From a virus, in IMG/VR virus record IMGVR_UViG_3300021602_000007, positions 3,179 to 67,178 of that record: a DNA stretch of 64,000 bases; one strand, given 5' to 3'. Positions 24,507 through 41,358 of the stretch are shown one piece after another. The notes under the pieces are model-generated. The model was not told where the DNA came from. It ran no database searches and was given only the letters and a program-made list of their open reading frames with translations. How positions within the stretch are numbered: the first letter of the stretch is position 1; each line of letters begins with the position of its first letter. The position numbers and the translations under genes are program-made.

Positions 24507-26408
24507 TTATTTAGAATATTTTTGTAACCATCCACCTTTCTGTGGAGTGTTATAGTTTGTAAAATTAGTTAGATTATCTAGATTCTGTAAACTTTTTTGT
24601 TCTTGTCTTAATCCATTTTTTCCTATAGGATATTCTCTTACCTTCTTACCCTTAAATTTGTAGTCTTTTCCTGGGACCATGTATTGTGTATCTCCTGTAT
24701 CAGAGATGCCTAAAAGAGGCTGATTTACCCCTTGCATTGTAATATTATTACTACCTATCTCTACAGGCTTTCCCCAGTTGTCAGGATTCCAATATCCAGC
24801 ATCATCTTTTGTAATACCACCATCTTTTTGTTGACTAGCTGCTACTCCTACAGCAGGAACTACTGCAGGTAGTAGTTTAACTAAACGTCTTTTCTCTTCT
24901 TGTGTTGTAGATGGTTTGAAAAACTTTCTATGATCAACCATTTTAATTAAACGATCAATAGTTTTATCTGAAGGATTTACAATCATGTCCATAGCATCTT
25001 CATGTGATAATCCTTTAGCCATAGCTTTACGATAAATCTTTTCTTTAGAAGGTAATATCTCAGAATGTAATTCATCAGGAGATGCATTCCATACATATTT
25101 ATTTTTAACAGGACTAGCCATACCTTCTGCAAACTCTCTACCTAAATCTGTATAAGGATTAGCATGAAAGTAATCAGTAACATTAGGATCATAATTTGTT
25201 AACTCTGCACTATATGGAAGACCATTACGTTCTCCAAGTCTTTGTGCAGAGTGAGTTAATTCATGTATACCTGTATGCTTTGCTCTTTCTGGAGGTAAAC
25301 TGTAAAATCCATGATTTCTAAAAGTTATACTCTCATTAGTTTCAGGATTATTATATCCTCTTGCTGATCCTCTATTATTTAAAATTTCTTCTTTTGTACT
25401 AAGTGGTAATCCAGTTTTTTCAAGATCTTTTGTTCTTGTAGATAATAATATATTTCTAGCTTTAGAAATTGGATTGTTTTCTGCAGTCTTTAAAAAATTG
25501 TTATCATCACTAATAAAAGGATCTATGTTTCTAATTCTTTGTTCTATCTCAGGTCGTAAGTTTATATCATTTCCATAAAAGTAATCTTTTGTAAAATCAA
25601 TTCCTTCAGCATAAGCTTTATTTTGTGCAGTAACTGCAGCATCTCTTTGTGCTTTTGTTATAGGAAACTTTTCAAAGAAAGGTCTAGGATCATCTAATGA
25701 TGCTATTACCCCTGCTAAATGATCTTTTGCTTTTACAGATGAATGTTTTATTAACTGATTAAGTTTTCCAACTCCTTCACTATTTTTAATAGTTTTAGCC
25801 ATGTTACTAGCAGCCTCAGCTCCCTTACCAAGCCATTTACCTCCAATAAGATTAACAGGATCTAATAAAAAATCTGCAGCAAACGCACCGTATGGGTTTT
25901 CTATTCCCATTGCCTCAGAAGGAGTTTGATATTTTCCTGAAGCTAAATATGTTGCAGCTTTTTGAGGAGCAGATATTCCTTCTCCCATTGCTTCTAATGT
26001 TCCTGCTGCTACAGGAAGTTGTTGTTCAGAAGGAACAAATAACATTCCTCCTGGCTGAAACTTCTCTAGCCATCCACCATTCTTACTAATAGTCTTTGGT
26101 TTCCAATCTAATCCTTCTTGCCAGTATTTCATCTCTTCACCATTCTGTGCAGAAGGCATTGTCTTCTTTGCATAAGGACCTTCTGAAGGAGCTGGGTTTA
26201 TTGTTCTTGCATATGTAAATCCTACACTTCCTGGAATAGATCCTCCCATAGCAAACTGTCCTCCCCATGCTGGGCTGTAGTTTCTACCAGAAATATCATT
26301 ACCCATTCCTACAAATCCTGGAGGAAGAGATGTTTGAGAATCATTATAGTTCTCTTGATACTCTTGCATCGTTCCACCATCTGCATATTTATCTAACCAA
26401 TTCTTCAT
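24507..26408 (-). CDS. putative virion cargo protein with HExxH zinc-metallopeptidase-like domain, 633 aa
   Basis: IHELTH motif with downstream ELHSE; repeated (GG)WLxKY/F motifs at the N-terminus, internally and at the C-terminus. Confidence 0.6.
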   Translation of the reverse strand: MKNWLDKYADGGTMQEYQENYNDSQTSLPPGFVGMGNDISGRNYSPAWGGQFAMGGSIPGSVGFTYARTINPAPSEGPYAKKTMPSAQNGEEMKYWQEGLDWKPKTISKNGGWLEKFQPGGMLFVPSEQQLPVAAGTLEAMGEGISAPQKAATYLASGKYQTPSEAMGIENPYGAFAADFLLDPVNLIGGKWLGKGAEAASNMAKTIKNSEGVGKLNQLIKHSSVKAKDHLAGVIASLDDPRPFFEKFPITKAQRDAAVTAQNKAYAEGIDFTKDYFYGNDINLRPEIEQRIRNIDPFISDDNNFLKTAENNPISKARNILLSTRTKDLEKTGLPLSTKEEILNNRGSARGYNNPETNESITFRNHGFYSLPPERAKHTGIHELTHSAQRLGERNGLPYSAELTNYDPNVTDYFHANPYTDLGREFAEGMASPVKNKYVWNASPDELHSEILPSKEKIYRKAMAKGLSHEDAMDMIVNPSDKTIDRLIKMVDHRKFFKPSTTQEEKRRLVKLLPAVVPAVGVAASQQKDGGITKDDAGYWNPDNWGKPVEIGSNNITMQGVNQPLLGISDTGDTQYMVPGKDYKFKGKKVREYPIGKNGLRQEQKSLQNLDNLTNFTNYNTPQKGGWLQKYSK

Positions 26409-27274
26409 TATTTATAAGAGATTTGAGCAGGTGTATATATAAATTGACTCACTAGGCTTACATCAGATTTGTCATCAAGAATATGTCTCACCTTAAGTTC
26501 TTTTGCTCTTAATGGTTCTTTCTTGAATGAGCGTAAGCCATAATCCATATTAGCTTGATTAACTAATTTATCAATTGATAAACTCTCACAACTTGTAATG
26601 AATAATGGAATAGCTTTGTTTTTAACAAGACTCCAGAATGTATTATATTGATAGAAGTTATCACTCTTAGTATATATAATAGTTTTGCTATCTGTGTTGA
26701 ATATAGGATAGCTTAAATAGGCTTTTAGATTATGGAGAGGCTTTGGTACCAGTTCTAATATTCCAGAGCTTTGTTGGCCATTATATACAACTGCTTTATT
26801 AAACCATTCATTGATTTCCACTTTATCATTATAACTGAACACTCCTGTACCATCTTCAATGTATCTATATGCTTTTGTATAGTCTTTTACATTCTGAAGA
26901 ATCTGGTCGAAGTATTGATATGCAAATGGATATTCAATTATATATGGTTCTATGTTTCCATAGAAATTATTATATGTTGTATTTACATTAGTTAAGTGTC
27001 TCCACAAACATGCTGTTTTAGTTTCTGTATATTTAGTATTAGCAAGTTCTGGTGTACTAATTATACCAACAGTCACTGTCTTCTTTATAATGCATTTTCC
27101 TACAGATTCAATTGTAACCATATTAACACTATCATCCACTTCATAAGTCACTCCTGCAATAAGCTGAGCTTTGGTAACATCACTTGCTATGATGTTATCA
27201 TATAGATCAGTTATTGTAAATGGTCCAGCATTAGGACTAGCACTTGTTAATTTTATGATTATTATTTTTGACAT
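26408..27274 (-). CDS. tail protein; probable C-terminal part of split nozzle/muzzle protein with N-terminal shared module
   Basis: LWRH..YNNFYG..PYIIE resembles the continuation of phage tail-stabilisation proteins; aa 1-62 resemble the N-termini of ORFs 27280-29334 and 37697-38761. Confidence 0.6.
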   Translation of the reverse strand: MSKIIIIKLTSASPNAGPFTITDLYDNIIASDVTKAQLIAGVTYEVDDSVNMVTIESVGKCIIKKTVTVGIISTPELANTKYTETKTACLWRHLTNVNTTYNNFYGNIEPYIIEYPFAYQYFDQILQNVKDYTKAYRYIEDGTGVFSYNDKVEINEWFNKAVVYNGQQSSGILELVPKPLHNLKAYLSYPIFNTDSKTIIYTKSDNFYQYNTFWSLVKNKAIPLFITSCESLSIDKLVNQANMDYGLRSFKKEPLRAKELKVRHILDDKSDVSLVSQFIYTPAQISYK

Positions 27275-27279
27275 ATTAA

Positions 27280-29334
27280 TTATTGATTAGCAATATCATT
27301 ATTATAATAACACCAAGCCCCTGTTGTTAGCCCTGCCCATGTTGTACCATTAGTAACATTTGGAATAACATCACCATTATTATAATGTTTAACAATCAAA
27401 CTTGATGCCATCCATACCTGTGTTCCAATTGTAACTGTTGAATATATATTACCATCATAATCAGTTACGGTACCAGTATTTATAGAATCATCTTTTATTA
27501 ATCTAATACTTTGTCCAGATGCTAAAGGTTCTACATATTGATTTGCAGTTAGATCATTATTATTTAAATGAAGTAACCATGCTGTAGGAGTGGTATATAA
27601 TGTAGATGCCCATATTCTAAATTGTGTTTTTAAACCACTAAATCCTCCACTGTAAATATATCCTCCACCTCTAGCTAAGAATCCAGATGTAAATGTTCCA
27701 GAATTAGGTGTATTCCAATATACAAGTCCTGATTGTTTTAACACTCCTCCTGCTACTGTTGCTCCACCTAAATATGTGGTCAATGTTGTAAATTCAGTAT
27801 GTGTTGGAACATGCCAACCAGCAGGTGCTATACTTCTACCTCCTGTATTATCAACAGCAGCATAATAGTTATACAAAATACCATAATTGATTGGTGTAAG
27901 TGTAGTGGTAGTTGTAGTGGTACTACTTGTTGTACTTGTTGACGTACTGGTACTTGTGCTAGTAGATGTACTAGTGGATGTAGTTGTTGGTGGAATAGTA
28001 GTAGTAGATGTTGATGTACTAGTTGTAGTAGGAGGATGTGTAGTAGTGGTAGTCGTAGTACTACTAGTGCTAGTTGATGTAGTTGTATGAGTTGTACTAC
28101 TAGTAGTTGTAGTAGTGGTAGGTGGTTGTGTTGTAGTACTTGTAGTTGTGCTACTACTAGTGGATGTACTTGTAGAAGTAGTTGTTGGTGGATGTGTGGT
28201 GGTGGTTGTAGTTGTGCTACTACTACTTGTTGATGTGGAAGTTGATGTACTACTACTTGTTGTTGTTGTAGTTGGACTAGCAGTAGTTGTGGTAGTAGTA
28301 GTTGTAATATCACAATTAGCATTTGTCCAATCATTATTATATGCACACAGTGCACCTGTGGTCAATATTGACCAAGCAGTATTATCAGTAACTTCAGGAA
28401 TAGTAGATAGATCTCTATACTTAGTTTCTCTCAGATTTTCTGACATCCACCACTGTGATCCAATTAATACACAAGTATACTGTGTACCATCATTTCCTAT
28501 ATATACACCAGTGGTTCCTCCAATATTAATTATATTAGGAACAGTATTCATTATCAATCGAATAGCACACCCTCCAGTAAATCCTAAACCACCTCCAGGA
28601 TTAAAATTAGCATTAGCATAACTAAGTTCAGCAACTGATGCATTTAAGCTATCATATAAATCTGTTGACCATATAAGTAAAATTCTATCTATATATTGGA
28701 AAGTTCCATAAGGTTGTCTTATTCCAGTTCCTTTTCCTGAAAATCCTGAAGTGTTATCAGCTCCTACATTTGGGGAATTCCAATATATTAATCCAGGTTC
28801 TTTCATATGTCCACCAGCTAAAGGTATTCCACCTAATGTAGTTGCAAGTGTTGTATATTCAGAATTATTAGGAATATGAGCATTATTAGCATAGACAGGA
28901 CTAGTATTAGTTACAACATACCAATTATATAATAATCCATAACATTTATTTGGTACTGCTGTTGTTGTACTAGTGGATGTAGAAGAAGAAGTTGATGTAC
29001 TTGTACTAGTTGAGGATGTAGAGGTGCTAGTTGATGTACTTGTAGAAGATGTAGAAGAAGAAGTTGTTGTACTGGTAGAACTTGTACTACTACTAGTAGT
29101 TGTTGATGTAGTGGTAACAGGAGTACAAGAAAGTTCAACTATAGTTCGACAACTACTAAGATCTCTAATTTGATAGGCAGTAGCATTTGCTCTAGGTACA
29201 AAAGTGTACCCAGGACTTTCCAATAATGATTTTGATACATAATTAAATACTGACCAAGAGGCAGTAGAATTATCATATATCGCTAATACATCACTAATAT
29301 TAGGACCTGCTTCAGTAATTGTTATAGTAGTCAT
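27280..29334 (-). CDS. putative adhesin/decoration protein with two circularly permuted FISUMP (Fibrobacter succinogenes major paralogous) domains on Thr/Ser stalks
   Basis: YGxLYNxY, (W)HxP..E..L...LGG, WNxPN, SGF, IGxQxWM, GAxCxYNND motifs each present twice; two long Thr/Ser tracts. Confidence 0.8.
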   Translation of the reverse strand: MTTITITEAGPNISDVLAIYDNSTASWSVFNYVSKSLLESPGYTFVPRANATAYQIRDLSSCRTIVELSCTPVTTTSTTTSSSTSSTSTTTSSSTSSTSTSTSTSTSSTSTSTSTSSSTSTSTTTAVPNKCYGLLYNWYVVTNTSPVYANNAHIPNNSEYTTLATTLGGIPLAGGHMKEPGLIYWNSPNVGADNTSGFSGKGTGIRQPYGTFQYIDRILLIWSTDLYDSLNASVAELSYANANFNPGGGLGFTGGCAIRLIMNTVPNIINIGGTTGVYIGNDGTQYTCVLIGSQWWMSENLRETKYRDLSTIPEVTDNTAWSILTTGALCAYNNDWTNANCDITTTTTTTTASPTTTTTSSSTSTSTSTSSSSTTTTTTTHPPTTTSTSTSTSSSTTTSTTTQPPTTTTTTSSTTHTTTSTSTSSTTTTTTTHPPTTTSTSTSTTTIPPTTTSTSTSTSTSTSTSTSTTSSTTTTTTTLTPINYGILYNYYAAVDNTGGRSIAPAGWHVPTHTEFTTLTTYLGGATVAGGVLKQSGLVYWNTPNSGTFTSGFLARGGGYIYSGGFSGLKTQFRIWASTLYTTPTAWLLHLNNNDLTANQYVEPLASGQSIRLIKDDSINTGTVTDYDGNIYSTVTIGTQVWMASSLIVKHYNNGDVIPNVTNGTTWAGLTTGAWCYYNNDIANQ
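27900..28305. repeat. low-complexity ACN/TCN/AGT tract encoding a ~135-aa Thr/Ser/Pro stalk
   Basis: gtagtagtt/gttgatgta-type repeats. Similar tracts at ~28960-29118, 29380-29500, 30720-30770, 38063-38084, 38350-38530, 38852-38880, 40348-40372 and 41455-41505. Confidence 0.9.
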
Positions 29335-29337
29335 AAT

Positions 29338-32300
29338 TTATGCATTACAAATTATTCCTCCTGTTAACGTACAGGGATCTATTGTTGTGGTGGTGGTAGT
29401 TGTTGAACTACTAGTGGTTGATGTACTTGTAGAAGTTGATGTACTTGTAGATGTGCTTGTAGTAGTAATGGGAGCAGTGGTAGTTGTGGTTGTTGTTATT
29501 ATAATATTACAATCAATTGTTCCATCTAATAAACAAGGATCTGCAGCTGTTGCCACTATCACTTCAAAATCATCACAACATCCATTCAAGCCAGAATAGA
29601 AGAAATTATTCTCAGCTATATACCAATTAGGAATATAACTGTGGAATGATATCCATGCTTTAAGATTCATGTGATATGATAATGTCCAACTCTTATTACA
29701 GAAATAGTTTCTATCTGATAGATAAACTTGAGTTCTTATAATAAAACCATTAACTGTTTCTTCTAAGAAGAAGTCACGAGTGGCAGCATCATATTTAATA
29801 TCTTTACTTAATGGGATATAATCTAACTTAGATATTATCACCCTATCGAATTTAGAATCATATACACCATGAAGTCCTATTCCTGCAAAGTTGTTATCAA
29901 CATCTACTTCTGGAAAATATCTAAGGATTTCAAATGCTAAATGGTCTGTAAAGAATCTATTCATTCCAGAACCAAATCCTGTTAAATCATTTGCTTTTGG
30001 TCTTCCATACATATCTGTATCTAGTAGAAATATCTGTCCCCTCTTAGCATCTATTGTTACCTGCCCTTGAGGAATCTTTAATAAGAATTTATTCTGACTT
30101 CCTACATATCCAAGATCTGTTTCTGCAAAGTCAATTGGTGGATTCTCAAACATCCTAGGATTGCCCACATAAGCCGCTTGAGGGTTACTTGTATCTATAG
30201 TGAGTAGATTGTTATACATTAAACTTTTGTTCTCAAAACGAGCTAATATAGCCTTATTCTGAATACCATCTAATGATGTAAGCTTGCCATAGTTTTGAGG
30301 AAAGTCATAATAAGAAATTGGTAAATAAGTTAACCAATTATTCACTCTATTACTTGCATCAGTTACTTGCTTCTCAGAATATATTGTTCTGAATGGAAAG
30401 TTTGTAAAGCAATGATTACTTTCCCAATCTGGAGGAAGATGTGAAAAACTATTTTCTTTATTCTGCTTAGAGAATGTTGTATTATAATTATATGTATTGT
30501 CTTGAGCAATAGGTACAAAATGTTGTTGTACCCAATCATCAGGAATACTACTACTAACATGAGGCCAGAAGTCTCCTGCTCTATTATCAATTGCTTGACG
30601 AAGATCTAGATTATATGAACTTTCACAATAAAAACTTGGCACTCCATATGCAAACATATAGAAATAGCCATCATAATACATTAGTGTATTACTTGATGTT
30701 GCTGTTCCTGGTGCAGCAGTAGTAGTGGTAGATGTAGTAAGACTAGTAGTAGTTGTACCAGTGGTTATTATTCCATCATTAGGACAATCAAAATTATGTG
30801 CCTTATATGAAATGATATTTGATAAAAGTCCTCCACTAGATGTATAATCTTTAAGAATACTTCTTGCAGAGTGCCAGTATTTAGGATAGGCAACATTACC
30901 TATTTCATCATAAAATATATCACTATCATCTGGGGCATCCACTCTATTATCAATAAAGAAAGGAAGTTTAGTTTTAAATGCAAACCTACTAATAAATGTA
31001 TCTCCACCAAATATTGTAGTAGATGTACCACTATTTAAAGTTTTTTGAAATCCTGTATCAACTGTTTGATATGAATAAATTTGTCCCCATTGATTTACTA
31101 CTTGATTCTTTAATGAAGCATAGTATGACACAACTTGAATAGGTGTTTCTCTTGCAGGAGTTCCACAGTTGTCTGATCCAGAAATAGTAAATCTAGAATG
31201 ATCACTAACAATAGAAGTTCCACCAGGAGCTAAACTAATAGTTTTATCAGGAAATGGTAAATATGGTTTATCAGAATCTGTTTTTAAATATATAGAAGAT
31301 TCTCTTTGATAATTATTAACTACAAGGTCATCACCAACAGCCTCCATTGAGGGAATCAAATATCTAGCTAATTCAAGATTACGTTGTTTAATTCCAAGAT
31401 CATTTGGAATCTCTGCCCCATAATTATAATCAGCAATAGAGTTAAATGAATATGCAAAGTTCTTTCTTGTTATACCATTTATATAAATAGTTAAATAAGA
31501 TTGATATGCTGCAAACATTGCTTGTGCACTAAAATTAGGAGAAGTAATATTTCCTAATGTATTAGAACTATCAAGAGCTAATCTTTGTGCTTTTTCTGTA
31601 AGAAGTCTATACTTAGCATTATTTCTAACTTCTGTAAAATGTGCTTTACCAGTACCAAACATTACACTTTCAAGTTTGAGAATAGTTCCAAGGAATGGTT
31701 GCCCAAAAGATGTTTCAGGAGAATTAAATATTTGTCTATTTCTTAAATCATTACTAACAGGTTGTAGTGGTATAGTAACATTACAAGTTTTATTGGATGT
31801 TACTAAATTAAGATATTCCTTGTGTAATCCATTAGAACTACTAATTTCAGTAGGAATTGATCCTACTATTGCCTTTACAGTTTCACTTATAAATCCTGCA
31901 TCAGGAATTTGAGGAATAACAGGTATTTCTACATACCCAAGTACTGGATCTATAAATGCTACTGTGATAGTATTTTCTGTATAATCATTCCAAATTAACC
32001 AATTAACATAATCAGCATAGCTAACTACTCCTGTAGCAGGATCTAATATAATTGGTTTAGTAATAGAACATATTTCTGTTACTCCTAATTCATATAACTT
32101 AAGTGTTGTTGATTTATTTGTATTACAATTTGTGTATTGAACAATTGCATAATCTTTTCCTCCTGAAAAATCTTGTACTAATTTTGTTATATCAATATTA
32201 AATACAATGCACTGATCAATATATGCATTATTAGTTTGTGTTAAGAAAGGATCTGCATTAAGATCATTATATGGATAATTGGGGAAATAAAATTCTTGAT

Positions 32301-34068
32301 CATCTCTATTATATTTATTTACATTTCTAAGAATTCCCTTTCCAACAATAGAACTATTTGTACTTCTATTTCCTCTTATAATTTTAAATCCTACAACATC
32401 ATCCTTCTGCTCGGTAGTAAGTAATGAAGAATTGATAAGAGATGCAACTTGTGCTATATCAATATTTACACCAATAGGAAATATAGCATCATTACCCATC
32501 ACCATAGAACTAGGAGATGAGAATATCTTTGATTCATATATAGGACTTACAAGAACATCTGGAAACTTATGATGTCTAATTTTCTGTCCTGCTAAATCTC
32601 CCCACAAAGTTTCATTACAGGGATATTCTTCTGTTGATTCCCAATATGCAAATTGTCCATATTGATAAGGTCCTTTGTATGTTGGATCAGTTGAATATTC
32701 TGGAGAAGTTCCTGTTACAGAAGCTGTATTATATATTTCCCAATAAGGACTATATCCTATACCACCTTGAGTATATGAAGGAGCTCCAATAAAATCAGGA
32801 TCTGCTTCTGCAATAGGAAGTCTATTTTCAGATTGACCCATCACTCTTCCTGGAATATGAAAACCATCTGTCTGCTTACCATTCTTTAATAAGAATACTA
32901 TCTCAAATGCATACACTTCATCTCGTAGATATCCTCTAAGATTTGTAGCATTTAATTCATTTGAATAATTCTCTGTTGCAGGTATTCTCCAACTTTCCCA
33001 TTGAAAAGTAATTTGACTAGCAATACTTTGATAGTTAAGTCTATCTATAGATGTAAGTTGATCCCATACAAGAATATCTTGCACTGCTGTTAAATCTTGT
33101 GCAATATCGTAATAAGGATACTTTTCAAATATATCAGCCATTGCCAATGATATAGTGGCAACATTTTGTCCTGTGTATGTTATTTGTCTTTGTGCAGATT
33201 CAATTGAATATGTTCCCAATAGTTCTACAGAACTTGCACCATTGATTGTTTTTATTACAGCAATATTAAAATACTGAAAGTATCCTGAAACATCAAGATT
33301 ACTTACATCAATAATAATAGACCTTCCAACAGGATAATTAAAATTAACTGATGTAATAAAAGGATCTGCAATAGGAGTGGGATTGGTAACAGAATAGAAT
33401 GATGTATATGCATTACCTGCAGCATCAGAATACTGTACAGCAAACTGATAAGTACCAGCAATTAAATCACCAACATTAACAACATCAGCTATTGTTAATT
33501 CAGGAATTGGAAAATTAGGTTGTAGTTTAAGAGCATTACAATTAAGATCGTCTGTATATACAGGACTACATAATGCACTTCCTGATCTTAACACCTTTGG
33601 AATATTATCTATATCTAAATATCTTCTTGGATTACATCCATCTGTCCAATATATCTCTGTAGTGCAATTGGTTATTTTATGTACAGCTTTATGTATTGGA
33701 TGGTTAATATTGAAATTTAAACATGGAGCATTGATCAGCACTCTATATATACAATCATTATTATCCATATATCCAATCTGACTATCTCCTGTTGTAGAAC
33801 TAGTAATAAAGAATATATGTTTATTTTTTTCAACAATAAAATGTGTACCAATTAAAACATATCCCTGTGGAAAATTAACACATAGTTCATTACCCACCTC
33901 ATTCTGGTAGTTAATAGAACTAGCATCAAAGTTTTCAACAGCAGCATTTAATGCATATGTCAAGGCACCCTTCTTAATTTGATTAAGAGTTTGGTCTTGA
34001 TTTAATCCAACTGTAGCATTATTATACTCTTGTTTTATATTGCCTTGTTGTTGTTCCTGATCAGCCAT
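29338..34068 (-). CDS. tail nozzle/muzzle (tail stabilisation, P22 gp10-like) protein, N-terminal part, 1576 aa
   Basis: Beta-rich sequence; YWTDG.N.RR, RGYLRDEVY, GGDTFI, WISFHSY motifs recalled from crAss-like tail stabilisation proteins; position after the ring and IHF-like genes. Confidence 0.75.
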   Translation of the reverse strand: MADQEQQQGNIKQEYNNATVGLNQDQTLNQIKKGALTYALNAAVENFDASSINYQNEVGNELCVNFPQGYVLIGTHFIVEKNKHIFFITSSTTGDSQIGYMDNNDCIYRVLINAPCLNFNINHPIHKAVHKITNCTTEIYWTDGCNPRRYLDIDNIPKVLRSGSALCSPVYTDDLNCNALKLQPNFPIPELTIADVVNVGDLIAGTYQFAVQYSDAAGNAYTSFYSVTNPTPIADPFITSVNFNYPVGRSIIIDVSNLDVSGYFQYFNIAVIKTINGASSVELLGTYSIESAQRQITYTGQNVATISLAMADIFEKYPYYDIAQDLTAVQDILVWDQLTSIDRLNYQSIASQITFQWESWRIPATENYSNELNATNLRGYLRDEVYAFEIVFLLKNGKQTDGFHIPGRVMGQSENRLPIAEADPDFIGAPSYTQGGIGYSPYWEIYNTASVTGTSPEYSTDPTYKGPYQYGQFAYWESTEEYPCNETLWGDLAGQKIRHHKFPDVLVSPIYESKIFSSPSSMVMGNDAIFPIGVNIDIAQVASLINSSLLTTEQKDDVVGFKIIRGNRSTNSSIVGKGILRNVNKYNRDDQEFYFPNYPYNDLNADPFLTQTNNAYIDQCIVFNIDITKLVQDFSGGKDYAIVQYTNCNTNKSTTLKLYELGVTEICSITKPIILDPATGVVSYADYVNWLIWNDYTENTITVAFIDPVLGYVEIPVIPQIPDAGFISETVKAIVGSIPTEISSSNGLHKEYLNLVTSNKTCNVTIPLQPVSNDLRNRQIFNSPETSFGQPFLGTILKLESVMFGTGKAHFTEVRNNAKYRLLTEKAQRLALDSSNTLGNITSPNFSAQAMFAAYQSYLTIYINGITRKNFAYSFNSIADYNYGAEIPNDLGIKQRNLELARYLIPSMEAVGDDLVVNNYQRESSIYLKTDSDKPYLPFPDKTISLAPGGTSIVSDHSRFTISGSDNCGTPARETPIQVVSYYASLKNQVVNQWGQIYSYQTVDTGFQKTLNSGTSTTIFGGDTFISRFAFKTKLPFFIDNRVDAPDDSDIFYDEIGNVAYPKYWHSARSILKDYTSSGGLLSNIISYKAHNFDCPNDGIITTGTTTTSLTTSTTTTAAPGTATSSNTLMYYDGYFYMFAYGVPSFYCESSYNLDLRQAIDNRAGDFWPHVSSSIPDDWVQQHFVPIAQDNTYNYNTTFSKQNKENSFSHLPPDWESNHCFTNFPFRTIYSEKQVTDASNRVNNWLTYLPISYYDFPQNYGKLTSLDGIQNKAILARFENKSLMYNNLLTIDTSNPQAAYVGNPRMFENPPIDFAETDLGYVGSQNKFLLKIPQGQVTIDAKRGQIFLLDTDMYGRPKANDLTGFGSGMNRFFTDHLAFEILRYFPEVDVDNNFAGIGLHGVYDSKFDRVIISKLDYIPLSKDIKYDAATRDFFLEETVNGFIIRTQVYLSDRNYFCNKSWTLSYHMNLKAWISFHSYIPNWYIAENNFFYSGLNGCCDDFEVIVATAADPCLLDGTIDCNIIITTTTTTTAPITTTSTSTSTSTSTSTSTTSSSTTTTTTTIDPCTLTGGIICNA

Positions 34069-34073
34069 AATTA

Positions 34074-35054
34074 TTAGTTATTACGTCTTCTACCATATCT
34101 ATTGGTATAGTTTGGCAATTCGTACATATTAAATCTATTTAGATCTTTTATGATTCTTCTTTGTTTAGCATACTGATCTTGTTTCTTTATCTCAATAGAT
34201 GCCATAATAAATGCCTCATCAGTGAGTTGCTTATAGTAAACAAGTTTCTGCTGTAACTGTTGAAAAGTTTCATCATTAGTTTGATTGGTTAATGTTTCAA
34301 ACACTTTATACTTAATGAATGATTCAACAAATTCTCTAATACGATAATTATCAGGAATCATTTGATTACCTGCAGCATCATAATCTGTAGAATAAAATAT
34401 TAAATGCACTGCTGCATTTCTAAAATTAGTTACAAACTTATTGTCCCTAATGTCAAATGAATCATATCCAGAATCTCCAGGAGCAAAGTTGTTTAATCCG
34501 TTGCCATTAGCACCAGAATATGCTTCCCAGTTATTAGTATAACTTACATCACAGTTTTGTTTTGCAGAGATGTTTCCTGGTTTAAGTAGATATTCTCTTT
34601 TATAAGACTTTACTAGATTTCTATTCGTCTTGTATACAGCTTGTATAAGATTAGGAAAACAACTACCATCACAATCAGGATTATGACATTCAGGATTACT
34701 ACAACCAGGACCATCTGTTGTGATAGGAGCAATTAGTATTGTTGTAGGATCATCAGTCTGTGAATAGAATGAGTTTGCAGATTGATATGGAAGAGAACTT
34801 ATTTCTGTACACATCCATGCTTCTCTTACAGCAAAGAAGTTATCAGGAAGTCTAGCTTGAAAATCTTCTATATTTAAAGTTTCTTCACTTATAACATATG
34901 AAGATCTTCCAAGTTTTCTAAGACATTTATCAACATATGTAGGAAACATAAGATCATCAACAGCACCTGTGTCAAAATAGCTCTTCAGCTCTTCCTTCAC
35001 TGTAGAGTATACAATCTCTGGTGATGTAAAATTATATTTATAATAGTATGCCAT
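34074..35054 (-). CDS. tail ring/connector-type structural protein
   Basis: Synteny between the IHF-like gene and the nozzle gene; GNQMIPDN motif; Cys-rich insert CSNPECHNPDCDGSC. Confidence 0.55.
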   Translation of the reverse strand: MAYYYKYNFTSPEIVYSTVKEELKSYFDTGAVDDLMFPTYVDKCLRKLGRSSYVISEETLNIEDFQARLPDNFFAVREAWMCTEISSLPYQSANSFYSQTDDPTTILIAPITTDGPGCSNPECHNPDCDGSCFPNLIQAVYKTNRNLVKSYKREYLLKPGNISAKQNCDVSYTNNWEAYSGANGNGLNNFAPGDSGYDSFDIRDNKFVTNFRNAAVHLIFYSTDYDAAGNQMIPDNYRIREFVESFIKYKVFETLTNQTNDETFQQLQQKLVYYKQLTDEAFIMASIEIKKQDQYAKQRRIIKDLNRFNMYELPNYTNRYGRRRNN

Positions 35055-35060
35055 AATTAT

Positions 35061-35537
35061 TTATTTTTGCCATTCGTTATAGATATGCTGATATTGGTCG
35101 TTAGTTGTTAGATAGTGCTTCAATAATCTAGAGGTTGTACGTGAAGCCTTGAAATAAAAAAGATCAGATTGTTTAAATCTAGCAGTCTTTTTAAACCATG
35201 TCCATCCAAAGAAGTATCCTTCTGTGTGGAAATTAAAATTATATATAATCTTTCCTTTTGCTTTTGTCTTCTGCCAATCAATAGGAAGGTTTACAAATTC
35301 CTTACCATCTATAAGCTTCATCTTTTTTCTCTTCTTCTTATTAATGGAAAACTCACCAAATCCAAAAGGTAGTTTTGCTTTTTCTCCAGTTTCAAGAATA
35401 TACTCCCTAAATGATTCATTAAAGGAATATATAATATTCTTCCACTGGTCAAATGTAACTGATATACTAGGATGACTTTTGCAGAAGTTATTGTAGTTAT
35501 CTTTACTAGAGGATCTCCAATCAACTGCTACTCTCAT
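35061..35537 (-). CDS. IHF/HU-like DNA-binding protein
   Basis: KLPFGFGEFSI signature; basic; PIDWQKT motif; conserved position in the crAss-like tail module. Confidence 0.7.
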   Translation of the reverse strand: MRVAVDWRSSSKDNYNNFCKSHPSISVTFDQWKNIIYSFNESFREYILETGEKAKLPFGFGEFSINKKKRKKMKLIDGKEFVNLPIDWQKTKAKGKIIYNFNFHTEGYFFGWTWFKKTARFKQSDLFYFKASRTTSRLLKHYLTTNDQYQHIYNEWQK

Positions 35538-36266
35538 CTATTTTAAGTTTGGTGCATTTGGTGCTTGACCATCAATACCATCTTCTGTTATATCTGTTTT
35601 AAGTCGGAAGTATGTAGCTAATAGTTTTTGAGAGGTAAGTTCCAACACTTGCTTTTCTAGGTACCCAGGAAGGGCAAATTCCTTGTCTAAAGGATTCTTG
35701 CACCATTCTTCATCTGTTACCTCTGCAGTGCCACAACCACAGTCAGGATACATAATACTATTTGGAATATCCTCTTCAAAGAATGCTACAAATCTTACAG
35801 CTTGTAAGAGAGGATTACTAACATATAAATAGCCATTTGATATCCAGAAATATTCTTCTTTTCTTATGATGGGAAGTTTTAGAAGATTAGCATAACGATT
35901 TACTGTTATCTCTTTTATCTTCTTTCCTCTACCACTCATTGCATTGATAGAATATACTCCTTGAATAACATATTGATAATTACCTTCAGATACACGAGGA
36001 AGCTTTTCTTTGCTTCTTGCAACACTACATGGATCTACATAATCACAACATTCTGATATAGAAACTTCCATCATTTCTAAACATGGAATAGTCGTAAATA
36101 ATGTATCAGTAGCCCAGAGCTTTCTGAGATTAGTCTCCCTCTTTATAAGAAGGAGAGAATCATTCCGTATCTCAGAAGCTATTGCTCTATCTGTGATAAG
36201 ACTATCCGTAGATAATATCTTATGCATAGAACGTACATCTGAAACTAATTTTCTTAATGTTGACAT
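35538..36266 (-). CDS. tail tubular/ring protein
   Basis: 242 aa; synteny in the crAss-like tail module; C..RSK..LP and NGYLY motifs. Confidence 0.6.
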   Translation of the reverse strand: MSTLRKLVSDVRSMHKILSTDSLITDRAIASEIRNDSLLLIKRETNLRKLWATDTLFTTIPCLEMMEVSISECCDYVDPCSVARSKEKLPRVSEGNYQYVIQGVYSINAMSGRGKKIKEITVNRYANLLKLPIIRKEEYFWISNGYLYVSNPLLQAVRFVAFFEEDIPNSIMYPDCGCGTAEVTDEEWCKNPLDKEFALPGYLEKQVLELTSQKLLATYFRLKTDITEDGIDGQAPNAPNLK

Positions 36267-37519
36267 TATAAATATTGTTTGAATATATTTGTTATCCCAT
36301 CAACCTTATCTATTAAAAATCCTGTCACTTCTGCTCTTGAGCATGTATAACCATTTTTGTCATCCCAAAGACTCTTTGCATTAGATAGAGCAGGAAGCTG
36401 ATAGAATTTAATTCCATTTAAATCAAGACTCACTTCGTGATGTCTGTCTCCTGTGAATATATAGAAGTTAGTATGCTTGGACCAACCTTCTCTAAATTCC
36501 ATAGGAAAGATAGATGCTAGTTTAGCTGGTTTTAGAACATCTCCATGATTAAACATTAATGCACTATTACCATATGATATATATTTTCTGTATTTAGGAC
36601 TTACGTTAAATGTGATTCTATCTGTAAATCTAAAATAACTCTCTAACCATTTGATCATATACCATCCTGCAAACTCATCATGATTACCTGAAATATATAC
36701 AACATCTACATTTTTTGCATTCTGTAGTAACATTGTAATTATTGCCACTTCATGATCACATATAAATTCAAAAGATTCATGATGTGAGTGAGTATTCTGT
36801 TGAGGAGTTCCTTTGGTAGTCATGTTTGTGAATTCACTATTGAACTCATCACTACCAATGATATATGTAATATTATCTAAGTTGTTTGATAGTCTTGCTT
36901 GGTTAACTATGATTTCTGTTTTATTTAGAATGTTAGCAAGTCTATCGTCTATATTATTATTACCATCTACATCAAATTTATTTAGATGGGAGTCTTGTTT
37001 ATTGATAACTAAATTACCAAATGCATTCTTAGTAAAGATTTTAGGACTTTCAACATCTTGAGATGTAGGAATATATACATTTAAAAATTCTATAAAACTA
37101 TTTTGAAAGAGTTGTTCTTCTTTCTTTGCTCCTAGCCAAGCTTTAACTTGCCAATGAGGAGTGCTTTTATTCCCCCAATAATTCTGTACATACTTTGTTA
37201 TTTCCCACTTCTCTGTATCTATCTTACACTTTATAATTAGCTCATCCAGAGATCTAATCTCTTCATTAGTATTAACTACTATTTCTCCTGTTCCTTTTTC
37301 AAGATCTTCAAAAAACTTTATTACACTAATTTCTAATTCATTAATATAATCTTCATCATCACTCTCAACATATTCTTTAGAGTCTTTATTTCTTAACTCA
37401 TTAAGTAGTTCTTCAACTTCAACTTCTGTGATTCCTAGCTTGTTAGCATAAAACTTTTTACTTTGTTTCCAACTAAGTAACTGCTCTAGCCGATTTAATA
37501 AATCTTGGTTTTCACTCAT
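36266..37519 (-). CDS. calcineurin-like metallophosphoesterase with N-terminal HTH-like region
   Basis: DSH, GSD, GNHD, HGD and GDRHH metal-binding motifs in canonical order. Confidence 0.8.
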   Translation of the reverse strand: MSENQDLLNRLEQLLSWKQSKKFYANKLGITEVEVEELLNELRNKDSKEYVESDDEDYINELEISVIKFFEDLEKGTGEIVVNTNEEIRSLDELIIKCKIDTEKWEITKYVQNYWGNKSTPHWQVKAWLGAKKEEQLFQNSFIEFLNVYIPTSQDVESPKIFTKNAFGNLVINKQDSHLNKFDVDGNNNIDDRLANILNKTEIIVNQARLSNNLDNITYIIGSDEFNSEFTNMTTKGTPQQNTHSHHESFEFICDHEVAIITMLLQNAKNVDVVYISGNHDEFAGWYMIKWLESYFRFTDRITFNVSPKYRKYISYGNSALMFNHGDVLKPAKLASIFPMEFREGWSKHTNFYIFTGDRHHEVSLDLNGIKFYQLPALSNAKSLWDDKNGYTCSRAEVTGFLIDKVDGITNIFKQYL

Positions 37520-37547
37520 ATTAAATGGAGTTAGTTAAAATTGAAGG

Positions 37548-37578
37548 TAAAGATATATTATCTTTTTATAATTTCAAA
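37548..37578 (-). promoter_or_regulatory. Bacteroidota sigmaA-type promoter
   Basis: Minus strand TTTG-N19-TATCTTTA, downstream of a terminator and upstream of the phosphoesterase/tail operon. Confidence 0.65.
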
Positions 37579-37602
37579 ATATTTTTAATTATCTACGTTA
37601 TC

Positions 37603-37627
37603 TATTATAACTAAATTAGTTATAATA
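37603..37627. promoter_or_regulatory. perfect 25-bp palindrome, candidate operator
   Basis: TATTATAACTAA-A-TTAGTTATAATA, between the terminator and the promoter. Confidence 0.5.
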
Positions 37628-37656
37628 AAAACTCCCCAGACTTTTGATCTGGGGAG
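37627..37656 (-). terminator. intrinsic terminator
   Basis: CTCCCCAGA-7nt-TCTGGGGAG followed by TTTTT on the minus strand. Confidence 0.8.
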
Positions 37657-37696
37657 ACATCTTAGGAAAACCAACAAACCTAAGACATTTTAATTA

Positions 37697-38761
37697 TTAA
37701 CATGGACCATCAAGAACTGTAAATGCAAGAGGGGTACTATCTATATATAGAGCTGAGAATGATTTTGTTCCACTTAGAATTACTTGTTCATTAACTGGAT
37801 ACCCATGACTATCCGTAATCGTTAAACATTTAGTACCTGAACTAACCAGAATATCATTTACTACTATTGTATAAGTTCCTGGAGGATTAGGAATAGTTAC
37901 TTCATATGTAGCAGATTCGCCTCCACTTATAGGAGAAGGATCCCCTCCCGTTTGAACAAATGTATATCCATTAACTGTCATACCTGATCCAAGTATTCCT
38001 CCAATTGAAATACCTGTTGCACCATTTGTAAGATTCATAGTAACTAAAGTACCTCCTGCAAATGTAGTAGTAGTAGTAGTAGTAATACAACTTGTATTAG
38101 AAGATAGATTACCAGTAGTGACTGCTATAGCTGCACTATAAGAAGCAATTCCACCAGATACTGCATTATATCCAATATATCCATCTCCTGGAGCATATGC
38201 AATTGTTAATGATGGATCTGTATAAAATCTAGGTATAGTTCCAATTGAATATATTCCACTATAGTAAGGAGTTACTCCTGGAGATGCTGCACAAGCTGCT
38301 CCTGAACTAAGTTGTAATGAAGTTAGATACCAAGTAAAATGTACTGGAATTGTAGTTGTTGTAGTTGTTGTAATTCCAGAACTAGTTGTTGTAGTACTAG
38401 TTGTACTACTAGTAGATGTACTGGTACTAGTAGATGTTGATGTACTTGTTGTACTTGTAGTGGTAGGACCAGGAGGAGCAGTGGTACTAGTAGTAGTAGA
38501 ACTACTTGTAGAAGTAGTAGTGGTAGTAGTGAGACACTGAAGAGCCAGAATTCCTCCTGGTGCACATGTATCATTTTGGGATCTCACTTCAAAATATTGA
38601 GTACCTACTGGTGGTGTAAATAAATAACCACCATGTGTTAATTCATATTTAGTTGGGGGATATCCCCACAATGTCCATGTTGAATTATCAGGACTTGTAT
38701 ATATATTTAAAGGATCACTTATACTAGATCCCACTGCTGTTAGTGTTATTATGACGGCCAT
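37697..38761 (-). CDS. putative virion decoration/adhesin protein (shared N-terminal module, Thr stalks, beta-rich domains)
   Basis: N-terminal module similar to ORFs at 27274 and 29334; two Thr/Ser tracts separating Cys-bounded beta-rich domains. Confidence 0.6.
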   Translation of the reverse strand: MAVIITLTAVGSSISDPLNIYTSPDNSTWTLWGYPPTKYELTHGGYLFTPPVGTQYFEVRSQNDTCAPGGILALQCLTTTTTTSTSSSTTTSTTAPPGPTTTSTTSTSTSTSTSTSTSSTTSTTTTSSGITTTTTTTIPVHFTWYLTSLQLSSGAACAASPGVTPYYSGIYSIGTIPRFYTDPSLTIAYAPGDGYIGYNAVSGGIASYSAAIAVTTGNLSSNTSCITTTTTTTFAGGTLVTMNLTNGATGISIGGILGSGMTVNGYTFVQTGGDPSPISGGESATYEVTIPNPPGTYTIVVNDILVSSGTKCLTITDSHGYPVNEQVILSGTKSFSALYIDSTPLAFTVLDGPC

Positions 38762-38779
38762 ATTTTTAGTTTTATATTG

Positions 38780-39121
38780 TTAACATATTATTCCAGCTGT
38801 AATTATACAATCTGGACAAACTATTTCACCTAGTAAAGTACATGGTGCTATTGTAGTGGTAGTAGTGGTTGTAGTGGAAGTTAAGTTAAATATTTCTTGT
38901 ATTAACTCACAAATCTGAGCATCTATCTTTTTTAGAGCTTCAGTTAATGTAGTACACGTAGTTACACCAGTACAAGGTAGATTAGGACCACTGTATATAA
39001 CAGCATCCGATTGTATTGGATCAGCAGAACATGAGTTAGAACCACACCCACATCCACAATTACTTGTTTTACCCAAATGAGCAAAGCTTCCAATAACATT
39101 ATATGTTCCTTGACAAGACAT
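38780..39121 (-). CDS. small Cys-rich fibre-associated protein with Thr stalk and two C-terminal Cys tags
   Basis: VIYSGPNLPCTGV module shared with the next ORF; ends TTTTTTTTIAPCTLLGEIVCPDCIITAGIIC. Confidence 0.6.
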   Translation of the reverse strand: MSCQGTYNVIGSFAHLGKTSNCGCGCGSNSCSADPIQSDAVIYSGPNLPCTGVTTCTTLTEALKKIDAQICELIQEIFNLTSTTTTTTTTIAPCTLLGEIVCPDCIITAGIIC

Positions 39122-39133
39122 AAATTATTTTAA

Positions 39134-40264
39134 TTAAGGAATATAGATAATATAATAACAAGCAATTACTGGTTGAATATTTGAATGTGACTCACTAGAT
39201 CCAGCATTAGCATTTATTGTATTTAAAGTAATAGTAACATCACTAGTTAGCCCTAGTGTAGATGGAGTATAACTACCCATTATTCTATATGAAGAATTGT
39301 CATTTGATTCATCTCTATATACAGGATATGTAGTATTAGTTAGGTATGGACTATTTCCTGTAATAACATCACTATTAAAAGAATAATGAGAATGTGTAAA
39401 AGGTGCAGTGGTAGCAGTATGTGTGTGAGTAGGCATTTGTGCAGGTTGCAATGTAATAGTATTAGCACCTGATATTCCAAATGAACTATATGTAGGATTT
39501 CCAGGAGTTGCTGGATTCACTATTGCATTAAATGTATTTGCACCCATGTCAGTTCTTCCAACAGGAACAACGCCTCTTAAGTCAGGAACTCCAGGATTAT
39601 TACCATTACATAAATATATATTCTTCCAAATAGTAGTATCAATTCCTTTACCTGTACTATCAAACTTTCCAGCAATATCTGGATCAAAGAATGGTACAGC
39701 TACATATGGAACCATTTTATTACTAATTAATGAATTAGGCTGATTTGCTAAAAACCAATCATTAATAATACTATCAATATCATCAAGTTTTACATATGTA
39801 CTAGGAAGACTATTACTAAGAGCACAAAAATCACTAATCACTGCTTGTAATACAGAATGTGTGCTATTAGCATCTATTGTTCCTGTAAGACATCCTGGTA
39901 GTGCATATATTGAATTTAATTCTGCTAGTGTATTATTAATTGTAGCCACATCTATTACAATAGCACTCACTTGCTCTTGAAGATCACAAGCTGATTTAAT
40001 AAGAGCTGTTGTATAATCTACAATAGTAAAATCTCCACAAGTGGGGAGATTATTTCTTACAAGATCACATATAGGAATATCAATGTGTGGTTTGATTCCT
40101 GTGCCATCTAATGCAGATTGTAAAAAAGTTATTAAAGATTGTTCAATTCTAGAAAGAGGATCACCATTCTGAATTCCCAAACTGGGAACATCTATCCCTG
40201 TATATCGAACACATTGATCTGAAACTATATCAACGCATCCATTAAAGCAATTAGAACATGCCAT
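39134..40264 (-). CDS. tail fibre protein with tail-collar-like domain
   Basis: LCNG..PDLRG..PVG, ITL...QMPTHTH and HSNIQPVIACYYII are phage tail collar/short fibre motifs; coiled-coil N-half. Confidence 0.75.
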   Translation of the reverse strand: MACSNCFNGCVDIVSDQCVRYTGIDVPSLGIQNGDPLSRIEQSLITFLQSALDGTGIKPHIDIPICDLVRNNLPTCGDFTIVDYTTALIKSACDLQEQVSAIVIDVATINNTLAELNSIYALPGCLTGTIDANSTHSVLQAVISDFCALSNSLPSTYVKLDDIDSIINDWFLANQPNSLISNKMVPYVAVPFFDPDIAGKFDSTGKGIDTTIWKNIYLCNGNNPGVPDLRGVVPVGRTDMGANTFNAIVNPATPGNPTYSSFGISGANTITLQPAQMPTHTHTATTAPFTHSHYSFNSDVITGNSPYLTNTTYPVYRDESNDNSSYRIMGSYTPSTLGLTSDVTITLNTINANAGSSESHSNIQPVIACYYIIYIP

Positions 40265-40295
40265 GATTTTTTTATTTTAATATATTGTATATAAA

Positions 40296-40676
40296 TTAAG
40301 TCACTGGAGTACAATCTATGTCCCCACATATAAAACATGGAGGAAGCGTTGTAGTGGTAGAAGTACTTGTATATCTAACTGTCATACAATCTGGATCACA
40401 TCCAGGAATACAGCCCACTGTAAGAAGGATCACCCTACTTGCAATTGCATTTAATGAATAGCAACCAGCATAATTAGGATTACAAACCCTATATGTTAAG
40501 ATTCTTTTATAATTTAATAGATCAAGTATAACAGTACCTGATATTGGTTGATTGAGTGAGAATATCGTATTGTTATAAAGATTCCTTGCCAGCTGATTCA
40601 GACTGCAGTCAATCCTTCTTAATAAAGAAGGAATAGAGGCACATTCTGGACAGTTTGTAAGTCTAGGTAATAACAT
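40296..40676 (-). CDS. Cys-rich structural protein (tail hub-like) with Thr stalk and Cys tag
   Basis: 126 aa within the structural operon; ends TSTSTTTTTLPPCFICGDIDC. Confidence 0.55.
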   Translation of the reverse strand: MLLPRLTNCPECASIPSLLRRIDCSLNQLARNLYNNTIFSLNQPISGTVILDLLNYKRILTYRVCNPNYAGCYSLNAIASRVILLTVGCIPGCDPDCMTVRYTSTSTTTTLPPCFICGDIDCTPVT

Positions 40677-40686
40677 TGCTTATATT

Positions 40687-40776
40687 TTATTTTGATGCGT
40701 TACACGTGGGGCATAGTCCATTTATCAATTGACATCCACATCCGAAAGTTGCTTTGCAGTTACTACAAGTTGCCAT
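40687..40776 (-). CDS. 29-aa Cys-rich microprotein (not in ORF track)
   Basis: MATCSNCKATFGCGCQLINGLCPTCNASK*; fills the gap between two structural genes and overlaps the upstream stop by 14 nt; CxxC, CxC and CxxC motifs. Confidence 0.7.
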   Translation of the reverse strand: MATCSNCKATFGCGCQLINGLCPTCNASK

Positions 40777-41350: not shown

Positions 41351-41358
41351 ATGATTTA

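Follow-up and report, generated by a model that had tools for sequence, protein, structure and literature searches.

A split muzzle protein, a family of proposed handle domains and a cysteine-tag repeat in the tail-tip display apparatus of an uncultured crAss-like phage

Introduction

Members of the Crassvirales are among the most abundant phages, and how they attach to cells is poorly known. Modular phage receptor-binding proteins join a conserved N-terminal virion anchor to an exchangeable C-terminal binder, and branched tailspikes of this kind occur in CBA120 and G7C. In SpyTag/SpyCatcher (a split CnaB2 domain) and in chaperone-usher donor-strand complementation, a short beta-strand peptide is added to an immunoglobulin (Ig)-like domain and locked there; the donor-strand-complemented pilin domain is an Ig fold without its last strand, a second chain supplying the strand that fills the groove. 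Cellulosomes have folded cohesins (PF00963; nine-stranded beta-sandwiches of ~140 residues) as the repeated sites of the scaffold and a dockerin (PF00404; ~70 residues with two calcium-binding loop-helix repeats) on the cargo. Here we analyze a 64,000-nucleotide (nt) stretch of the viral record IMGVR_UViG_3300021602_000007 (hereafter, the window), in which a group of genes, all on the minus strand, encodes the tail-tip display apparatus of an uncultured crAss-like phage. The initial annotation of this DNA had pointed to short cysteine-bracketed peptides (tags) and to a domain shared by the N-termini of three proteins (the module), and had proposed that the two bind each other. We find a muzzle gene split in two, a large family of proteins that start with the module, their proposed handle, and a tag repeat on proteins with their own anchors. 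This anatomy is well supported; the support for docking of modules on tags is circumstantial.

The closest described counterpart of the central protein is the PhicrAss001 muzzle gp44 (PF25731, structure 7qok). According to its published description, everything past about residue 1021 belongs to later propeller blades, and gp44 itself already has Ig-like domains inserted into propeller loops (PMC10172136). The locus studied here is similar in that a 1576-amino acid (aa) protein matches crAss_MUZ and the C-terminal 190 residues of a 288-aa protein superpose on gp44 residues 1241-1371. It differs in that the gene is in two pieces, with a Thr-linked appendage on one side of the cut and an FN3-like module on the other, and in that, in this window, a whole 684-aa gene lies inside the break.

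The other systems resemble the locus in design. As in modular receptor-binding proteins, a constant N-terminal domain precedes a variable C-terminal part and several paralogues occur per genome; here, however, the anchor is an FN3-like domain that has no annotation, a poly-Thr stalk connects it to its head, and a short peptide repeat takes the place of a folded adaptor domain as the proposed receptor, with a disulfide proposed as the lock. The working idea is the same as in the SpyTag and donor-strand systems, and the tag carries small or hydrophobic residues, including a conserved Gly, on one face. In contrast to SpyTag/CnaB2, the lock would be a disulfide, and the structural matches to CnaB2 are weak (Z 4.3-4.5), with no homology. 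The likeness to the cellulosome is conceptual only, in that exchangeable modules are clipped to repeated sites of a scaffold: here it is the scaffold that bears peptides and the cargo that bears a folded domain, and sizes and probably folds differ.

Materials and Methods

The source record is a 67-kb viral contig with an estimated completeness of 58%, and we take the window to be part of a crAss-like phage genome because its 1576-aa open reading frame (ORF) matches the crassvirus muzzle family PF25731. ORFs were called from ATG starts only, with greedy selection of non-overlapping ORFs. Viral contigs were scanned with the 1576-aa muzzle piece, giving 204 confirmed stretches, from which 80 loci with 54-71% identity were kept. 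A second set of relatives holds 82 loci, 55 of them non-redundant; at least eight of its contigs are common to the first set, and counts from the two are not additive. The first count of Cys covariation covers the 62 of 81 sources that have a muzzle ORF with the FFYSG motif plus a second piece of 280-292 aa. The correlation of tag and module counts and the tests of co-occurrence and exclusivity used unique or non-redundant rows only.

Neither megablast with positions 26408-34068 nor tblastn with the module of the 684-aa protein found a match in a phage collection, and a word-based protein search for longer proteins that used the window's own divergent modules gave none. Scans with a three-sequence alignment of the window's modules recovered one viral locus and three metagenome loci, all of the lineage of the nearest relative, L023. 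When the 288-, 1576-, 376- and 326-aa proteins were compared with PDB sequences by phmmer, only chance-level rows were returned. A full-text literature search listed no description of this module, tag or muzzle split.

The muzzle gene is split in a short loop near its C-terminus

The 1576-aa ORF matches Pfam crAss_MUZ (PF25731, E 1.1e-38) and the PHROG virion-protein families phrog_37948 (E 5.8e-108) and phrog_15100 (E 2e-32), and its N-terminal and central parts belong to the crassvirus muzzle family (PF25731/phrog_15100). In most of the 80 loci this homology ends near residue 1506, right after a conserved FFYSG motif. The tails behind residue ~1506 are mosaics in which tags, Fib_succ_major domains and small Cys-rich domains are mixed with poly-Thr tracts.

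The C-terminal end of the muzzle family is present on a separate protein. In almost every locus that reaches that far, a relative of the window's 288-aa protein (286-290 residues) is encoded directly after the muzzle, a subset of loci having one extra gene in between that consists of a module, poly-Thr and a variable end; within IMG/VR, 451 of 511 candidate stretches encode such a relative. The AlphaFold2 (AF2) model of the 288-aa protein (predicted local distance difference test, pLDDT, 77.8) has the PhicrAss001 muzzle 7qok_A as its best Foldseek match (E 0.015, probability 0.98). VIA-align places residues 95-284 on gp44 (7qok_A) residues 1241-1371 with Z 7.7 and a root mean square deviation (rmsd) of 2.9 A over 126 residues, the runner-up matches to this C-terminal part scoring Z 4.5 or less. 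The family profile phrog_15100 is matched by 45 of 55 homologues of the 288-aa protein, the window's own copy not being among them, and the match falls at the very end of the profile: residues 89-284 of the protein from locus L031 cover positions 1587-1777 of 1783. Finally, residues 89-288 used as a query retrieved 111 longer proteins that are 44-69% identical there, most of which are unsplit muzzles of 1438-1924 aa, some of them marked PF25731. Taken together, these results show that the 288-aa protein joins a module to the final ~200 residues of the muzzle, the muzzle gene having been split in a short loop near the C-terminus of its product.

Unsplit muzzles have only 4-21 residues between FFYSG and the W-R-H motif, and in most of them this stretch contains no Cys; one of them, P0151, has a 21-residue loop with Cys at both ends. 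With a cut loop this short, the muzzle tail must begin near the linker and module of the 288-aa protein. Judging from the blade layout of gp44, the cut is probably in a propeller loop.

A second cut, upstream of FCNKSW...FFYSG, is seen in the muzzle region (~10-17 kb in each locus) of L029, L033, L036, L040, L046, L048, L051, L060 and L065. In three of these (L033, L036 and L040) a Fib_succ_major-like domain closes the first piece, and an ORF of 279-525 aa has the last core strands and a variable tail.

The N-terminal module begins a very large family of stalked proteins

Homology among the N-termini of the 684-, 354- and 288-aa proteins, as initially proposed, is established by profiles. Pairwise BLASTP connects only the first two (E 7e-10, 27 of 74 residues identical), with the 288-aa N-terminus reaching only E 0.052 against the 684-aa protein and giving no alignment with the 354-aa protein. 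A hidden Markov model (HMM) built from the modules of 77 relatives matched both the 354-aa (E 9.2e-14) and the 684-aa (E 2.5e-12) proteins. The window's divergent modules gave hhalign probabilities of 98.3% and 90.8% (98.3% is the value listed for the 684-aa module), and the 288-aa module subfamily aligned with the other modules at 99.6% (E 2.1e-24). A profile search of the window's 67-kb record returned exactly three module copies (E 1.3e-26, 2e-15 and 1.2e-14).

The same search strategy showed that a very large protein family begins with the module, behind which come a poly-Thr stalk and a variable head. Among 1.84 billion representative proteins, 2,323 clusters matched at E <= 0.001 and 1,482 at E <= 1e-10. 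In the best 150 of the 2,323, which are 78-578 aa long, the module starts at residue 1-8 except in two that start at residue 23; a poly-Ser/Thr run is present in 141, starting at residue 65-100 in 139, and 114 have a Cys among the last six residues. Proteins of 76-107 aa that consist of the module only were also found. Genomes encode one to four module proteins in addition to the 288-aa protein.

AF2 modeled the module of the 684-aa protein (76 residues, 132 aligned sequences) as six strands and a short helix with a pLDDT of 87.8 and a predicted template modeling score of 0.75. Foldseek returned nothing for it at E <= 0.001. VIA-align matched it to FN3 and other Ig-like sandwiches (Z 5.2-6.5 over 63-75 residues, rmsd 2.3-4.1 A), where a Z below 8 may mean a common arrangement only. 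The model suggests an FN3/Ig-like domain of ~75 residues whose resemblance to known folds is generic. The module proteins of the window have no Pfam match to this region at E <= 0.01 and no PHROG match to it, and an ESM Atlas look-up led only to unnamed viral clusters.

Related Cys-bracketed elements that the initial annotation had missed lie at the ends of two modules. The last strand of the 684-aa module is a C-x7-C element (aa 62-70) right before poly-Thr, and the 354-aa module ends in C-x9-C ahead of its poly-Thr. In the C-T-N-Y-I-D segment of the last strand the polar residues are kept too (N in 207, Y or F in 183 and D in 178 of 228 modules). The surrounding S-T-G-x-C-T-N-Y-I-D is strongly conserved in the modules outside the 288-aa subfamily (loci L001-L080 and library proteins P0001-P0150), and the 288-aa subfamily has a Lys-rich strand there.

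With a conserved N-terminal domain, a variable C-terminal part and several paralogues, the family belongs with the modular binders. We read the module as a virion anchor because this is the usual design of such proteins, and infer that it is the handle that fixes its proteins to the virion. The heads were initially described as adhesin-like. That description suits the 684-aa protein, which matches Fib_succ_major (PF09603) in four stretches (E 4.5e-37, 128.6 bits against a cut-off of 33.9) and so belongs to that family; the payload of the 354-aa protein has no Pfam match. The general idea of interchangeable heads carried on Thr stalks and fixed through a shared module stands, the specific pairing of module with tag being a tentative proposal.

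Ig-like domains on other phages have been proposed as weak binders of glycans or mucus, and the module might be such a decoration rather than an anchor, with the variable C-terminal parts attaching to the virion. The FN3/Ig-like fold and the existence of module-only proteins of 76-107 aa would suit this alternative. We nevertheless judge it very unlikely, since in the loci all 170 of 170 significant profile matches start at residue 1-5, so that the conserved part is N-terminal and the variable part C-terminal, as in an anchor followed by a binder; moreover, one copy is fused to a core muzzle piece, and the heads include Fib_succ_major domains.

The tag is a conserved, clade-wide repeat

Five tags of the form C-x7-C had been reported in the window, and their translations and coordinates proved exact. 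The strict pattern C-x-[LIV]-x-[GA]-x-[IV]-x-C has exactly five matches in the products of 25 minus-strand ORFs, starting at residues 1512 and 1566 of the 1576-aa muzzle piece, 94 and 105 of a 113-aa protein, and 114 of a 126-aa protein. In 2000 within-protein shuffles the mean was 0.0105 matches, with one match in 21 of the 2000, for a pattern that was defined after seeing the data. As also reported, every tag adjoins poly-Ser/Thr, the run lying 3-14 residues away in all five cases. Because the tag DNAs share only 14-23 of 30 bases, the tags are not recent copies and their conservation is at the protein level; a recent DNA duplication is ruled out by the same figures.

Relaxing the pattern to C-x-[LIFVM]-x-[GA]-x-[AIVL] gives 254 matches in the ORFs of the window and the 80 loci, compared to 69.5 +/- 8.4 after shuffling. 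Muzzle homologues hold 153 of the 254 matches, and in 59 unique listed tails all but four of the matches follow FFYSG; among complete muzzle tails (59 unique), one or more tags lie past the junction in 55. First muzzle pieces of relatives carry one to nine copies, mostly internal and mostly with one Cys. An alignment of 100 instances gives the logo [LP]-[DN]-C-x-L-x-G-[TE]-[AVI]-x-x-[IT], with L at +2 in 86, G at +4 in 97 and D or N at -1 in 79, and the C, L, G and A at positions 0, 2, 4 and 6 would form one face of a beta strand. The form with two cysteines, C-x7-C, is confined to the window (five copies), its nearest relative L023/L085 (three copies) and one tag in L057/L059.

The claim that tags are always near a C-terminus is true of the window and fails in its relatives. 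What follows the 105 muzzle-tail tags is another tag in 35 cases (mostly at a spacing of 10-14 residues), poly-Thr in 33, another domain in 24 and the C-terminus in 13; single tags also occur as islands between two Thr tracts. Thus, the tags are a real repeat, conserved across the clade, and are not specifically C-terminal plugs.

Could the tags lack a binding role and be linker-end caps or leftovers of cassette exchange, such as the shortest Cys-ended element or the first strand of a lost head? Cysteines are enriched on both sides of poly-Thr tracts, the muzzle tails after FFYSG are hypervariable mosaics, and many ORFs, including that of the window's 393-aa protein (41439-42620, minus strand), end in poly-Thr plus one to four residues, like linker borders cut before the next domain, which fits cassette exchange within Thr-coding repeats. 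Against this stand the conservation of the tag sequence across muzzles that are only 54-71% identical, its enrichment over shuffled sequences, and the single tags isolated by a Thr tract on either side, an arrangement that a scar would leave unexplained. We regard this explanation as unlikely.

Likeness of tag and module to dockerin and cohesin, also raised initially, is a functional analogy and nothing more. A Pfam scan of ten proteins at E <= 0.01 found nothing beyond crAss_MUZ, Fib_succ_major and a weak Gp10_C, hence neither family. The tag, at 10 residues, matches no dockerin profile and has no duplicated calcium-binding loop. The three module-bearing proteins have no cohesin profile match; their module, with 75 residues and FN3 domains as its best structural matches among the VIA-align rows listed, does not fit cohesin in size and probably not in fold. 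True, divergent homology to either family is therefore improbable to the point of being negligible.

Docking of modules on tags is a tentative reading with circumstantial support

The reading that we put forward, tentatively, is that modules dock on tags by strand pairing, are locked by disulfides, and have the junction between the two muzzle pieces as their founding example. The docking sites would be the tags on self-anchored proteins, i.e., the muzzle tail and the 113- and 126-aa proteins. A tag would pair as an extra strand with the edge of a module, and after lysis a disulfide between the tag Cys and the lone Cys of the module would lock the handle. In the lineage of the window, with two Cys on each side, two disulfides would be possible. 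As the founding pair we propose the module of the 288-aa piece and the muzzle segment behind FFYSG, two parts that the split set side by side; tag repetition and module copying would then have multiplied sites and cargo. In its full form, this would be a natural peptide-tag/Ig-domain docking system on a phage tail. One-Cys tags would be present in up to nine copies on each of the six muzzle tails, with others on hub or fibre proteins, and every tag would capture one FN3-like handle of 75 residues that is then disulfide-locked in oxidizing conditions; the pair would have been born from the two edges of the muzzle split. For this complete version our confidence is lower, and we offer it as a conjecture.

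One indication is covariation of cysteines across the cut. We scored a triple of cysteine counts, namely the Cys within nine residues behind FFYSG, those at the 288-aa module's end and those immediately preceding W-R-H. Among 62 loci the classes were (2,1,1) in 36, (1,1,0) in 13, (1,2,0) in 11 and (0,0,0) in two; among the 55 non-redundant loci of the second set they were (2,1,1) in 49 and (1,1,0) in six. Hence a second Cys after FFYSG is present exactly when the Cys before W-R-H is present (both or neither in 36 and 26 of 62 loci, and in 49 and six of 55), with no discordant locus. The module Cys of the 288-aa protein is missing only in L028 and L070, which are also the only loci whose muzzles have no junction Cys at all; in L028 the other module protein and the downstream tags still have theirs. 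On a tree of the 288-aa C-terminal domain these Cys states need five changes, where the minimum possible is three.

A lone Cys is typical of the module, which also favors docking. Exactly one Cys lies in the first 85 residues of 194 of 232 module proteins, and the total number of Cys is odd in 173 of 232. Of the listed module proteins of at most 110 residues, 13 of 15 have exactly one Cys, the exceptions being a cut-off 288-aa copy (L015) and P0133. The lineage formed by the window, L023 and L085 departs from the clade norm on both sides at once, its tags and its modules outside the 288-aa subfamily both having the C-x7-C bracket.

Tags and modules also occur in the same loci and on different proteins. 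Strict co-occurrence had been proposed as a check, and all 45 of 45 complete non-redundant loci are concordant: 42 combine at least one module protein with single-Cys tags, the window likewise has tags and modules but in the two-Cys form, and two lack both. With sensitive detection, none of the 45 has module proteins without tags or the reverse. In copy number, tags and module proteins are uncorrelated (rho 0.09, p 0.58; for muzzle tags only, rho -0.14, p 0.39; 40 loci). A tag beside poly-Thr is found in none of 81 module proteins, compared to 67 of 240 other proteins (Fisher p 2.6e-10), although 99 of the 116 tags are in muzzles; no module protein in the loci bears a tag of its own. In the protein library, one 107-aa protein, P0133, is the sole protein found to have a module, poly-Thr and one C-terminal tag in one chain; it could self-complement or form chains.

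Several observations weigh against docking. Besides the lack of correlation in number, module proteins outnumber tags, as counted with the pattern used there, in four of the 40 loci, and muzzle-tail tags are largely internal and tandem, only 13 of 105 being C-terminal. The tag Cys may have a generic reason, since Cys is enriched three- to fourfold at all poly-Thr borders (within six residues before 247 of 559 tracts, with ~71 expected, and after 241 of 445, with ~56 expected). Tag pairs often look as though they open a larger conserved domain. The module alone already gives a confident AF2 fold, and therefore nothing shows a missing strand. The covariation rests on few independent events, and the two sites involved, at the 3' end of the gene for the first muzzle piece and at the 5' end of that for the 288-aa protein, are neighbors in the genome and can be exchanged together; the 11 loci of class (1,2,0) are unbalanced in Cys, and the junction segment in the class of the window departs from the tag pattern. 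All loci that lack a module protein belong to one or two lineages, genes upstream of a module gene mostly have no terminal tag, and the 113-aa homologue of the closest relative has no tag. A complex prediction for the 354-aa module (132-row alignment) with residues 78-113 of the 113-aa protein scored 0.10 and 0.01 against a mark of 0.32; made without controls, it is evidence neither way.

These points bear on a further alternative, that the module is a handle on some other conserved tail surface (muzzle body, ring or hub) and that the tags associate with each other, as hairpins or by zipping the six muzzle tails or fibre chains together, their Cys-Cys bonds stiffening the Thr stalks. The arrangement of tags suits this: they are mostly tandem pairs or arrays at 10-14-residue spacing, the window has two each in the muzzle and the 113-aa protein, and their equal C-x7-C spacing allows in-register pairing. 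Likewise, L025 and L027, which have no module proteins, carry one tag with a second Cys of its own, and tag and module numbers would be free to vary independently, as they do. There is precedent in PhicrAss001, where tail parts are joined by inter-protein disulfides and a C-terminal segment of the tail hub enters the adjacent hub (PMC10172136). Self-pairing does not, however, predict that tags should be absent from all 81 module proteins despite the same linkers, nor the joint loss of module and muzzle Cys in L028 and L070, and it leaves the lone module Cys without a partner. We therefore consider it somewhat unlikely.

Implications for crAss-like phage tails

The clade spans hundreds of viral contigs and the 2,323 protein clusters with the handle domain. 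This domain, the muzzle split at the handle site and the peptide repeat of the muzzle tail suggest a host-binding surface that is rebuilt from small cassettes. If so, exchange of small handle-stalk-head genes or repetition of a 12-residue tag would change or multiply the binders. Should tag-handle docking with a disulfide lock prove true, it would be a new assembly principle for phage appendages, and might also be used as a small coupling pair that can be encoded genetically. Independently of docking, many metagenomic crAss-like genomes can be annotated better, as the 288-aa protein can be named as the missing muzzle end and the module marks exchangeable tail decorations.

Other proteins of the locus

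The coordinates of the proteins, modules and tags of the window are collected in Table 1.

Table 1. Tail-tip features of the window (positions count from the first letter of the window)
Feature	Position	Strand	Basis or description
First piece of the split muzzle gene, 1576 aa	29338..34068	-	core ends at FFYSG (aa 1489-1493), then variable tail
Junction segment after FFYSG, aa 1494-1506	29551..29589	-	two adjacent Cys, C1497 and C1498; first-piece side of the split
Muzzle tag 1, PCLLDGTIDC, C-x7-C	29509..29538	-	translation, pattern match
Poly-Thr/Ser stalk of muzzle tail, aa 1525-1562	29383..29496	-	translation
Muzzle tag 2, PCTLTGGIIC, C-x7-C, 11 residues from C-terminus	29347..29376	-	translation, pattern match
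684-aa module protein, inside the muzzle-gene break	27280..29334	-	module, Thr stalks, two Fib_succ_major domains
Module of 684-aa protein, aa 1-72	29119..29334	-	last strand bracketed by C62 and C70
288-aa protein, second muzzle piece	26408..27274	-	kept in nearly all relatives
Module of 288-aa protein, aa 1-75	27050..27274	-	conserved Cys C61; HMM E 2.5e-31
C-terminal ~200 residues of 288-aa protein	26411..27010	-	C-terminal end of crassvirus muzzle; C89 just before W-R-H motif
354-aa module protein	37697..38761	-	module aa 1-78, Thr stalks, payload
Module of 354-aa protein, aa 1-78	38528-38761	-	HMM E 9.2e-14
113-aa Cys-rich protein	38780..39121	-	conserved ~85-aa N-terminal part, poly-Thr, two C-terminal tags
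Two tags of 113-aa protein, PCTLLGEIVCPDCIITAGIIC	38783-38845	-	translation, pattern match
376-aa tail-fibre-like protein	39134..40264	-	phrog_8763 tail protein E 1.9e-16; phrog_8469 tail fiber E 8.9e-13
126-aa Cys-rich protein	40296..40676	-	conserved ~88-aa N-terminal part, poly-Thr, one tag
Tag of 126-aa protein, PCFICGDIDC	40311-40340	-	translation, pattern match

Module genes sit at two sites. At the position of the 684-aa gene, relatives have a variable gene of 167-353 aa as its counterpart. The second hot spot is between the genes of the 376-aa fibre-like protein and a 417-aa protein, which is the site of the window's 354-aa gene; the 354-aa protein has neither a Pfam nor a PHROG match. 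Read-through from a tag-ending gene into a module gene was considered and rejected: the window's gaps of 3 and 18 nt are in frame, and those of relatives, from -4 to 62 nt, follow no rule of three.

Both small Cys-rich proteins vary in length, the 113-aa family measuring 84-791 aa in relatives, with the variable part behind poly-Thr, and the 126-aa family 86-541 aa. Support for homology between the N-termini of the 113- and 376-aa proteins is marginal (E 0.012). An internal one-Cys, tag-like motif is found at aa 125 of the 376-aa protein (39872-39892, minus strand), and the loose pattern matches this protein's family 28 times across the loci.

The 1576-aa muzzle piece contains 23 Cys, the 113-aa protein 12 and the 126-aa protein 11. 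Five large proteins encoded downstream (window positions 1-26408, minus strand) are nearly Cys-free, with 0-2 per 633-4711 aa, in contrast to the Cys-rich tail proteins (26408-42620, minus strand). The contrast suggests that disulfides are used only in externally exposed parts.

Small ORFs lie between tail or cargo genes in three relatives (L010:10971-11603, L011:13319-13939 and L064:7318-7824); their N-termini resemble those of GIY-YIG homing endonucleases, which makes them candidate members of that group.

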